Shown here: positions 24,453-28,024 of the stretch, one piece after another
How the letters are laid out: each line of letters starts with the position of its first letter
Numbering within the stretch: the first letter of the stretch is position 1
Assembly: GCF_054482525.1 (NCBI RefSeq)
Contig: NZ_CM137006.1
Length of the DNA stretch: 64,000 bases
Direction: 5' to 3' (one strand)
Notes under the pieces: generated by a model
The model's database searches: none
What the model saw: the letters and a program-made list of their open reading frames with translations, nothing else
Told to the model about the DNA's origin: nothing
Position numbers and translations under genes: made by a program

Positions 24453-24758
24453 TCAGGCGAGTTTTGCCTCATTGATTTGACTCAGTGGCTCATTGACATC
24501 GAAAACTTTGGCGACAACTTCCTCAACGCCGAGATTTTTCAGTCGGGCAGTATGTTTTTCCAGATAGGCAAGGGCGCTTTTTTCATCAGTGAAAAGGTAG
24601 ATCCCACCGGCTTCGTGGTTCTTTTCACTTTCTGTCCATACCTTCCACAGAAAACCAGGTTCCTGATTAATCGACTCAGCAAGTGGTTTAAGCTGCTCAG
24701 CCATTGCGTCGCCAAATGGGCCATTAAAAGCAAAATGAAGTTGTAACAAAGTTGCCAT
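24453..24758 (-). CDS. ydhR: Putative monooxygenase-like protein YdhR, 101 aa
   Basis: 101-aa ORF beside the tRNA-Val pair as in K-12. Confidence 0.85.
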
Positions 24759-24866
24759 AGCGATTCTCCTTCTGATAACGCATACGAAGACAGTGTAAAT
24801 CTTTTAACGTATTGGATACAGAGAAGAAACAGAGGGAAAAAAGGAGAAGACCAGATTAAGAAAATC

Positions 24867-24943
24867 TGGTGCGTCCGAGTGGACTCGAACCACCGACCCC
24901 CACCATGTCAAGGTGGTGCTCTAACCAACTGAGCTACGGACGC
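24867..24943 (-). tRNA. valW: tRNA-Val (anticodon GAC), 77 nt
   Basis: Reverse complement reads GCGTCCGTAGCTCAGTTGGTTAGAGCACCACCTTGACATGGTGGGGGTCGGTGGTTCGAGTCCACTCGGACGCACCA; copy adjacent to ydhR, so by K-12 order probably valW. Confidence 0.9.
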
Positions 24944-24947
24944 AGGA

Positions 24948-25024
24948 TGGTGCGTTCAATTGGACTCGAACCAACGACCCCCACCATGTCAAGGTGGTGC
25001 TCTAACCAACTGAGCTATGAACGC
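24948..25024 (-). tRNA. valV: tRNA-Val (anticodon GAC), 77 nt, second tandem copy
   Basis: Reverse complement reads GCGTTCATAGCTCAGTTGGTTAGAGCACCACCTTGACATGGTGGGGGTCGTTGGTTCGAGTCCAATTGAACGCACCA; 4-nt spacer from the first copy; differences are compensatory in the acceptor and T stems. Confidence 0.9.
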
Positions 25025-25332
25025 AACGTTGTAGGTGACAACGGGGACGAATATTAGCGGCAGAGTGGGAAGGTGGCAAGAGGCAAAACGTAATTTTCTG
25101 CGGTATTTCGACCGTTTGCAGAGCTTTTAAGCAAATTGGCTATATTTTGTTGATTTGCAAGGGCGATTTTTATTCAGGATCGCATTTACATCTGACACAA
25201 CCCAATAATCTGTGTATCAGAGTTTAAACAGAGTTGTTTGCCACCATCTCAAAATCTGTCGTGGATAAATCCTCCGTAGCCTTTACACTTAAGTAGCAAT
25301 AAAGGCACACAGATGCAGCAAAGGAATAAATC

Positions 25333-26589
25333 ATGGGATCTGATGCGAAAAACTTGATGAGCGACGGGAACGTGCAAATTGTTAAGACCGGCGAGGTCAT
25401 TGGCGCGACGCAACTTACTGAAGGTGAGTTAATTGTTGAAGCTGGCGCAAGAGCCGAAAATACCGTGGTCATGGGGGCCGGTTGGTTGAAAGTGGCAACT
25501 GGTGGGATCGCCAAATGCACACAGTACGGTAACAATGGCACGCTATCGGTCAGTGACGGTGCCATTGCCACAGATATTGTTCAGTCAGAGGGAGGCGCAA
25601 TTAGTCTCTCTACGCTCGCTACGGTTAATGGCCGCCATCCCGAAGGTGAATTCAGCGTTGATCAGGGTTATGCCTGCGGTTTGTTGCTGGAAAATGGCGG
25701 TAACCTGCGTGTACTGGAAGGACATCGCGCGGAAAAAATCATTCTCGATCAAGAGGGCGGCCTGTTGGTTAATGGGACAACCTCAGCGGTCGTGGTAGAT
25801 GAAGGTGGTGAATTGTTGGTGTATCCAGGTGGGGACGCCAGCAATTGTGAGATTAATCAGGGCGGCGTTTTTATGCTGGCGGGGAAAGCCAGTGATACAT
25901 TGCTTGCTGGTGGCACCATGAATAATCTCGGTGGTGAAGACTCTGACACTATTGTTGAGAATGGATCCACTTATCGTCTGGGGACGGATGGTCTTCAGCT
26001 CTACAGTTCCGGTAAGACGCAAAACCTGTCCGTTAATGTGGGTGGTCGGGCTGAAGTGCATGCCGGTACGCTGGAAAATGCGGTAATACAAGGTGGGACA
26101 GTCATCCTGTTGTCACCCACCAGCGCGGACGAAAATTTTGTCGTAGAGGAAGATCGCGCACCGGTTGAACTGACCGGTAGTGTTGCATTACTGGACGGCG
26201 CTTCAATGATTATTGGCTATGGCGCAGATCTGCAACAATCAACGATTACTGTACAGCAGGGCGGTGTATTGATTCTCGACGGCAGTACGGTAAAAGGTGA
26301 CAGTGTCACTTTCAGTGTTGGTAGCATCAATCTAAATGGCGGAAAACTGTGGCTAATCACTGGTGCGGCAACGCATGTGCAACTGAAAGTGAAACGCCTG
26401 CGCGGAGAGGGAGCGATTTGCCTGCAAACCAGTGCGAAAGAAATTTCACCTGACTTCATCAATGTGAAAGGGGAAGTTACTGGTGATATACACGTTGAGA
26501 TAACAGATGCCAGTCGGCAAACTCTGTGTAACGCACTGAAACTACAGCCAGACGAAGACGGGATTGGCGCAACGCTCCAGCCTGCGTAA
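25333..26589 (+). CDS. ydhQ: Autotransporter-passenger-like beta-helical protein YdhQ (no beta-barrel translocator domain), 418 aa
   Basis: Gly/Thr/Val-rich repetitive composition typical of adhesin passenger domains; recognised as YdhQ. Confidence 0.85.
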   Translation: MGSDAKNLMSDGNVQIVKTGEVIGATQLTEGELIVEAGARAENTVVMGAGWLKVATGGIAKCTQYGNNGTLSVSDGAIATDIVQSEGGAISLSTLATVNGRHPEGEFSVDQGYACGLLLENGGNLRVLEGHRAEKIILDQEGGLLVNGTTSAVVVDEGGELLVYPGGDASNCEINQGGVFMLAGKASDTLLAGGTMNNLGGEDSDTIVENGSTYRLGTDGLQLYSSGKTQNLSVNVGGRAEVHAGTLENAVIQGGTVILLSPTSADENFVVEEDRAPVELTGSVALLDGASMIIGYGADLQQSTITVQQGGVLILDGSTVKGDSVTFSVGSINLNGGKLWLITGAATHVQLKVKRLRGEGAICLQTSAKEISPDFINVKGEVTGDIHVEITDASRQTLCNALKLQPDEDGIGATLQPA

Positions 26590-26629
26590 AAACACAGGCG
26601 CGACCCGTGAAGGTTGCGCCTTGTCTTTA

Positions 26630-28024
<1,395 letters not shown>

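Follow-up and report, generated by a model that had tools for sequence, protein, structure and literature searches.

Why is a gene for a beta-helical, adhesin-like protein with no visible route of secretion kept beside a pair of tRNA genes? This question is raised by ydhQ, located at 25333-26589 in a 64,000-nucleotide stretch of contig NZ_CM137006.1 (RefSeq assembly GCF_054482525.1), which is hereafter called the window. The window is part of an Escherichia coli chromosome, and 24860-26640 is 100% identical in strain PCN033. The initial annotation, made from the sequence alone, described the product as a passenger-like protein that might be a remnant or a partner-dependent surface protein inserted at a tRNA locus. 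Our analysis leads to a reading which we consider probable as a whole: ydhQ is a free-standing fragment of an AIDA-I/Ag43-type autotransporter passenger, which is kept by selection and has a binding role in the cytoplasm. The identity, architecture, and beta-helix fold of the protein, the loss of leader and barrel, the genus-specific insertion, and the purifying selection are results of this study. The cytosolic location in the absence of a leader, the control by sigma-32, and the expression are known from published experiments, and an intracellular function, exerted by binding through the beta-helix surface, is what we infer.

Identity and fold of YdhQ

YdhQ is a member of the ortholog group NF007409. 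It matches the NCBIfam equivalog NF007409 (PRK09945) over its full length (positions 1-418 of 418) with 933.8 bits, above the curated cut-off of 830. Compared with b1664 of E. coli K-12, annotated as "putative adhesin-related protein YdhQ", 409 of 418 residues are identical (97.8%). The gene and the regions of its product are listed below.

25333-26589, plus strand: ydhQ coding sequence, ATG to TAA, 418 aa (open reading frame (ORF) list, NCBIfam NF007409)
25321-25332, plus strand: Shine-Dalgarno sequence AAGGA at 25321-25325, 7 nt before the ATG, and in-frame TAA at 25327-25329 (sequence and translation); kept in six Escherichia-lineage sequences
25357-26112, plus strand: AIDA-repeat beta-helix region, residues ~9-260 (Pfam AIDA PF16168, 98.4 bits, three stretches)
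26122-26154, plus strand: low-confidence loop, residues 264-274 (predicted local distance difference test (pLDDT) <50 in AlphaFold2)
26317-26541, plus strand: Pertactin/autochaperone-type region, cut short, residues 329-403 (Pfam PF03212, profile positions 1-78 of 121)

The protein contains 15% Gly, 10.5% Leu, 9% Val, 8% Ala, 8% Thr, and 5% Asn. The passenger-like composition described initially as rich in Gly, Thr, Val, and Asn is thus correct for Gly, Val, and Thr, and it is accompanied by AIDA repeats, but Asn is only moderate. The AIDA-type repeats of ~19 residues (PF16168/TIGR04415), a passenger feature of self-associating autotransporters, are present, and the heptosyltransferase-target repeat TIGR04415 matches YdhQ above its cut-off (41.4 versus 30 bits). 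With NCBIfam, the Ag43/Cah and AIDA-I models were also matched in part, below threshold, and the top PDB sequence matches were the passengers of Ag43, an AidA-I family adhesin, and TibA. Residues 81-120 are the least variable across five Escherichia orthologs.

The AlphaFold2 model, based on an alignment (A1) of YdhQ orthologs and distant relatives, is all-beta with short strands throughout (mean pLDDT 91.3, predicted template modeling score 0.87). The pLDDT exceeds 90 in the AIDA-repeat region, and the loop of residues 264-274 is the sole disordered part. Foldseek against PDB detected Ag43 (7koh, 7ko9, 4kh3, and 7kob) and TibA (4q1q) with e-values from 5e-11 to 2e-8 and probability 1.0, and more weakly pertactin, Hap, IgA1 protease, and tailspikes. 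The template modeling (TM) scores are modest (0.35-0.45), as expected because the bent helices differ in length. The model clearly predicts a right-handed beta-helix of the self-associating autotransporter type, in agreement with the beta-helix suggested initially.

PADLOC reported nothing for YdhQ, and PHROGs reported one unannotated AIDA-like family only. This is phrog_21473, a phage family of unknown function with a 947-position profile, which matches residues 5-161 (25333-25815) with the e-value 5.5e-36. The match indicates that AIDA-like repeat proteins occur in phage or prophage genomes too.

Missing secretion parts and full-length relatives

The N-terminus of YdhQ (MGSDAKNLMSDGNVQIVKTGEV...) has no hydrophobic core; the maximum Kyte-Doolittle mean of 15-residue windows within the first 60 residues is 1.29. 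The in-frame TAA one codon ahead of the ATG leaves no possible N-terminal extension. In a 2026 paper (PMC13101318), SignalP 6.0 is reported as negative for YdhQ. The Pfam scan of YdhQ detected neither ESPR nor the barrel domain PF03797, and the Pertactin/AC_1 autochaperone is incomplete, covering only profile positions 1-78 of 121, versus positions 2-120 in relatives. Only 40 nt, with a hairpin inside, lie between the ydhQ stop and the stop of the convergent gene mdtK at 26630, so barrel-coding sequence could not fit. All frames from valV, the nearest tRNA gene, to the ATG and past the ydhQ stop were translated, and contained no remnants of a signal peptide or a barrel, only stop-rich frames and the terminator hairpin. 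The lack of both parts had been noticed in the initial annotation, and it is confirmed here. A separately encoded translocator, which had been proposed as a partner, was not found in the window: a tblastn search with five barrel regions revealed no barrel-like coding sequence (best e-value 0.17).

Among the four sequence features of type Va autotransporters, YdhQ has the beta-helical passenger and fails in three, namely the signal peptide, the complete autochaperone, and the barrel. Ag43 (flu), AIDA-I, and TibA, which belong to type Va, resemble YdhQ in the strand-loop-strand AIDA repeats, the right-handed beta-helix, and the start of the Pertactin/autochaperone region. In contrast to them, YdhQ lacks the signal peptide, ESPR, full autochaperone, linker helix, and PF03797, and has only 418 aa; they are exposed on the surface, whereas YdhQ is reported to be cytosolic and regulated by heat shock. 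TpsA exoproteins (type Vb) are similar to YdhQ in that a beta-helical protein has no barrel of its own, the translocator being encoded separately in the case of TpsA. However, the signal peptide, the TPS domain, and an adjoining TpsB are properties of TpsA, and none of them was detected for YdhQ by Pfam; the neighbors are tRNA genes and mdtK.

Relatives were searched exhaustively among 1.84 billion representative proteins, and 431 matches were obtained at e-values of 0.001 or lower. With ydhQ fragments set aside, most of the best 150 of the 431 are long, autotransporter-like proteins whose lengths range from about 600 to 6000 aa. The closest long relative among these 150 has 1534 aa with ESPR, 11 AIDA repeats, and AC_1/Pertactin, and is 38% identical to YdhQ. 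The closest sequence relatives outside the ortholog group are E. coli AIDA-repeat autotransporters of the YpjA/EhaD type, which have the same type of repeats and autochaperone and are 30-38% identical over the repeats. They are ~1500 aa long and include ESPR, 11 AIDA repeats, and the full AC_1/Pertactin (P0030), whereas YdhQ corresponds only to an internal or C-proximal piece. Complete autotransporters which align to YdhQ residues ~170-400 run on for 390-450 residues, containing the remaining Pertactin region and the PF03797 barrel.

These alignments show that YdhQ is a passenger piece which is cut within the autochaperone at one end and is missing the leader at the other. In the product, AIDA repeats form a right-handed beta-helix, after which come the first two-thirds of the autochaperone (Pertactin) region; the autochaperone lacks its end, and the signal peptide, linker, and outer-membrane barrel are absent. 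YdhQ should be filed as passenger-derived rather than as an autotransporter.

Two candidates for similar short proteins were rejected as uninformative. P0054 (422 aa, the same Pfam pattern) lies on a Logan contig of 1.5 kb, and its tail resembles the result of a frameshift. P0075, whose N-terminus is 53% identical, was found on a long-read metagenome contig that is full of errors and in which the ydh genes are fragmented.

Cellular location and possible function

YdhQ is unable to enter the Sec/type V route, and it would therefore be made and folded in the cytoplasm. The published data cited here on the location, regulation, detection, and deletion of YdhQ are all from K-12, whose protein is the 97.8% identical b1664 product. 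According to PMC13101318, a YdhQ fusion without an added signal peptide showed cytosolic fluorescence and its reporter folded.

Expression data point to the heat-shock response. The upstream region of ydhQ is a chromatin immunoprecipitation (ChIP) target of sigma-32 with a signal of 1.4 in a critical re-examination, where it is among the sites found earlier by ChIP-chip and other methods (PMC2996942). The list of the RpoH regulon on which PMC2710865 relies includes the gene. Upon misfolding of a single-chain variable fragment, ydhQ was induced together with dnaJ, grpE, lon, ycjX, ycjF, and yhdN (PMC2868799). Two features were recognized upstream of the gene.

25223-25249, plus strand: candidate sigma-32-type promoter, TTTAAA-13 nt-CACCATCT (best match to CTTGAA-N12-16-CCCCATNT, 10/13)
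25255-25320, plus strand: conserved 5' leader/promoter-proximal block of ydhQ (alignment A2, six lineages); 25170-25255 is variable by contrast

The midpoint of the published sigma-32 ChIP signal maps to ~25224 of the window, coinciding with the candidate promoter, if the offset between the MG1655 sequence versions is taken as 1977 bp. Near this midpoint, a published FlhDC peak of genomic SELEX (systematic evolution of ligands by exponential enrichment) at K-12 position 1744232 corresponds to ~25251, in the spacer between ydhQ and valV. The 5' untranslated region of ydhQ is a CsrA target in a published computational prediction, and an Rfam scan of the leader found no known RNA. Expression of ydhQ would thus be under the control of sigma-32, as published experiments indicate, and possibly also of CsrA.

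The protein itself has been seen by proteomics (PMC6561319). It co-purified with EF-Tu (PMC2672614), and was one of 17 unannotated proteins obtained when the RNA interactome was captured by UV crosslinking (OOPS; bioRxiv 10.1101/2023.07.03.547468). Matches to "ydhQ" in PMC7408604 are the peptide string YDHQGK and not the gene.

It is most likely that YdhQ acts inside the cell rather than on the surface. Its activity would most likely be non-enzymatic binding through the long surface of the beta-helix, and the ligands may be RNA or translation components. The more specific proposal, that a passenger was exapted as a cytoplasmic beta-helix of the heat-shock regulon which binds RNA or translation components such as EF-Tu, is tentative. 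If true, YdhQ would be the first type V passenger domesticated for a cytoplasmic stress function, and one fixed in the sampled Escherichia.

The best alternative is that YdhQ works outside the cell as an adhesin, leaving the cytoplasm through lysis, vesicles, or an unlinked translocator, and sticking to surfaces or to the Ag43-type passengers of neighboring cells. The passenger fold of the self-associating autotransporter class is consistent with this, and so are the positively selected sites reported for YdhQ, as for the surface proteins YfaL, YcgV, and OmpC. It would also account for an early-adhesion phenotype, which is mentioned second-hand in PMC9110714 (citing Roux 2005), where ydhQ is stated to be needed in early adhesion. 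YdhQ is listed under COG3468 in compilations from vesicle proteomes. In PMC13101318, "surface display" is claimed once an exogenous signal peptide is supplied, and the protein is termed a "leaderless autotransporter"; the passages searched there include no comment on the missing barrel, and the claim is regarded here as one that needs controls. However, the protein has neither a signal peptide nor space for an N-terminal extension, and the absence of a barrel, a TPS domain, and a nearby translocator gene leaves it without an export route. Its cytosolic location unless a signal peptide is added, the sigma-32 regulon membership, and the association with RNA and EF-Tu indicate the cytoplasm. The overall dN/dS (ratio of non-synonymous to synonymous substitution rates) of 0.10 also disfavors an adhesin. 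Cysteine is more abundant in YdhQ than in secreted relatives: it accounts for 1.2% of residues, whereas the median for 99 long relatives, taken over the regions homologous to YdhQ, is 0.4%, and just four of the 99 reach the YdhQ level. The cysteine content gives a small hint of release from the constraint on secreted passengers. Taken together, an extracellular adhesin is unlikely, and the partner-dependent surface protein of the initial annotation has no inner-membrane route, no barrel-like sequence in the window, and a regulon and location that do not fit it.

The early-adhesion statement, the COG3468 listing, and the display claim weigh against a cytoplasmic role of YdhQ, and several other points do so as well. 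The cysteine argument is weak. The sigma-32-like score of 10/13 was equalled by 49 of 500 shuffles (10%), and is not significant alone. The EF-Tu co-purification and the OOPS recovery come from high-throughput work, in which false positives arise easily. Strains deleted for ydhQ serve as neutral controls in published work. The insertion described below is dated only to an ancestor of the sampled Escherichia species, and no ortholog labelled E. fergusonii appeared among the protein clusters obtained, in searches that were not aimed at this species.

Insertion and selection between mdtK and the tRNA-Val pair

The return to the preferred reading, that of a passenger fragment kept by selection, requires the surroundings of ydhQ, which are as follows.

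About 25124-26630, no strand: Escherichia-specific segment carrying ydhQ, ~1.5 kb, holding only ydhQ, its leader, and a terminator (cross-genus homology break)
24867-24943, minus strand: valW, tRNA-Val(GAC) (ARAGORN, Rfam, K-12 annotation)
24948-25024, minus strand: valV, tRNA-Val(GAC), divergent from ydhQ (ARAGORN, Rfam tRNA, K-12 annotation)
25051-25079, minus strand: promoter-like site for valVW, TTGCCA-17-TAATAT, a consensus scan match only, inside the block conserved across genera
26596-26621, no strand: G+C-rich hairpin between the convergent ydhQ and mdtK, terminator-like on both strands (terminator scan)
26630-28003, minus strand: mdtK, MATE efflux pump, the convergent neighbor bounding the insertion (ORF list, annotation)

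The tRNA genes are upstream of and divergent from ydhQ, and the distance between valV and ydhQ is 308 bp. MdtK-anchored loci were compared across Enterobacteriaceae, 80 in total, 5 from Escherichia and 75 from other genera. No ydhQ was found in the 75 non-Escherichia loci. The distance from the mdtK stop to the tRNA-Val start is ~155 bp in Salmonella arizonae, Enterobacter, Lelliottia, Leclercia, several Citrobacter, and many others, and this spacing holds in most of the non-Escherichia genera sampled. Among the five Escherichia loci fetched, four were long enough, and all four (E. whittamii, E. albertii, and two further Escherichia lineages) carry ydhQ at this spot, encoding proteins of 418 aa with 81-87% identity.

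Homology across genera covers 24867-25123, which includes the tRNA genes and ~100 bp towards their promoter, and it starts again with the mdtK stop at 26631. On the tRNA-promoter side, it ends at 25123 for the Citrobacter loci and Intestinirhabdus (L049), and at 25099 for Salmonella and Enterobacter. The segment between these borders is a lineage-specific insertion, invariant only within Escherichia; the locus is not invariant and syntenic across Enterobacteriaceae, which had been named initially as an outcome that would refute the annotation. Around the 1.5-kb segment, neither flanking direct repeats nor an integrase was found, and its G+C content is 0.48-0.53, like the surroundings. The insertion is on the 5'/promoter side of valVW and not at the tRNA 3' end. 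Thus, it is not a classical tRNA-targeted island, and of the tRNA-linked insertion suggested at first, the lineage-specific gain beside the tRNA-Val pair stands, but the marks of tRNA targeting are missing. The segment became fixed in an ancestor of the sampled Escherichia species, with the mdtK terminator on one side and the valVW promoter on the other, and purifying selection has kept ydhQ as an intact 418-aa gene since then.

The ydhQ locus is present in 5419 of 5426 complete E. coli genomes. The one disrupted copy inspected, in E. coli AR_0013 (L082, 4473-7390), is split by an ISEcp1 transposase insertion. The protein is 418 aa long in E. albertii, E. marmotae, E. ruysiae, and E. whittamii, and the protein clusters are uniform. 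Between E. coli and four other Escherichia lineages, in which all copies are 1257 nt long from ATG to TAA, the dN/dS of ydhQ is 0.097-0.106 at dS 0.67-1.07. For the same lineages, dN/dS is 0.07-0.09 for ydhS and 0.01-0.02 for mdtK. It is 0.07 between ydhQ and its homolog from a 71%-identical lineage (P0018/L084), in which the upstream context is shared, and 0.10-0.21 within E. coli. Even where dS reaches ~2.9 and is saturated, the reading frame is free of stops and frameshifts, and all species sampled agree in its start, stop, and length. Since synonymous sites are near saturation and non-synonymous sites are constrained, selection acts on the protein. ydhQ is clearly a working gene under purifying selection, not decaying debris.

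This pattern largely refutes the view of ydhQ as a functionless leftover of a broken autotransporter gene whose decay is pending, which we rate as very improbable. Every full-length relative extends past the gene at both ends, no growth cost is reported for deletion of ydhQ, its locus serves as a neutral site for integration, and rare disruption by an insertion sequence is tolerated. Against these, dS of 0.7-1.1 has accumulated at dN/dS of 0.07-0.11, the leader and the Shine-Dalgarno sequence are conserved together with the reading frame, and published work shows regulated expression and a detectable protein. The word remnant used initially is therefore right about the origin and wrong about decay, as dN/dS is ~0.10 and the 418-aa length is common to five Escherichia species. 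K-12 contains disrupted autotransporter pseudogenes, such as ydbA and yaiT. They are similar to ydhQ in the loss of secretion parts. In ydhQ, by contrast, the ORF is clean and has a ribosome-binding site and a terminator of its own, purifying selection acts on it, and it has become fixed in the sampled Escherichia.

Least credible of all is a role of the segment at the DNA or RNA level with an incidental ORF, as an insulator of the valVW promoter from mdtK or as the mdtK terminator, because although it is placed exactly between the tRNA promoter and the convergent gene end and provides a bidirectional hairpin, the ~155-bp spacer suffices in most other genera sampled and the conservation is codon-structured with constrained non-synonymous sites.

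The gene, its odd architecture, the missing leader, and the regulon membership are already in databases and papers. What is added here is that the insertion dates to Escherichia, where exactly its borders lie, and evidence from selection that the gene is a working one. ydhQ is among the remaining uncharacterised K-12 genes, and is routinely labelled as "adhesin" or "autotransporter". This label is misleading, as every part needed for type V secretion is absent and selection is clear. Work on ydhQ would be better redirected from adhesion assays to cytoplasmic, heat-shock-related roles, and caution is due when the locus is treated as a "neutral" place for integration or the protein as an "autotransporter anchor" in surface display.

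The spacer between mdtK and tRNA-Val includes unrelated and differing ORFs in other genera (L014, L022, L023, L040, L041, L044, L046, L048, L056, L057, L061, L066, L068, L069-L071, and L074; spacer from 7372). Judged by eye from their N-termini alone, they look like a porin-like ORF, regulators of the LysR or TetR type accompanied by oxidoreductases, and ORFs for small, His/Lys-rich secreted proteins. The spot is thus permissive in general, and looks like a hotspot of gene gain. The copy number of tRNA-Val(GAC) at the mdtK loci ranges from 1 to 3. In Kosakonia oryzendophytica (L072, 7864-13350, minus strand), an ORF for a 1828-aa AIDA-type autotransporter-like protein (six AIDA repeats and AC_1) adjoins the same tRNA-Val pair on its 3' flank; the protein is 27% identical to YdhQ and non-orthologous. 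In E. albertii NBRC 107761 (L004), ydhR, the tRNA genes, ydhQ, and mdtK are present, and no YdhS match was found in the fetched flank past ydhR; the ydhS region may differ in E. albertii. In the window, 24742-24905 on the plus strand matches Rfam RF02194, "HPnc0260 bacterial antisense RNA", with 112 bits (gathering score 59, e-value 1.5e-15). The match lies opposite the start of ydhR, in antisense orientation, and reaches into the 3' end of valW.

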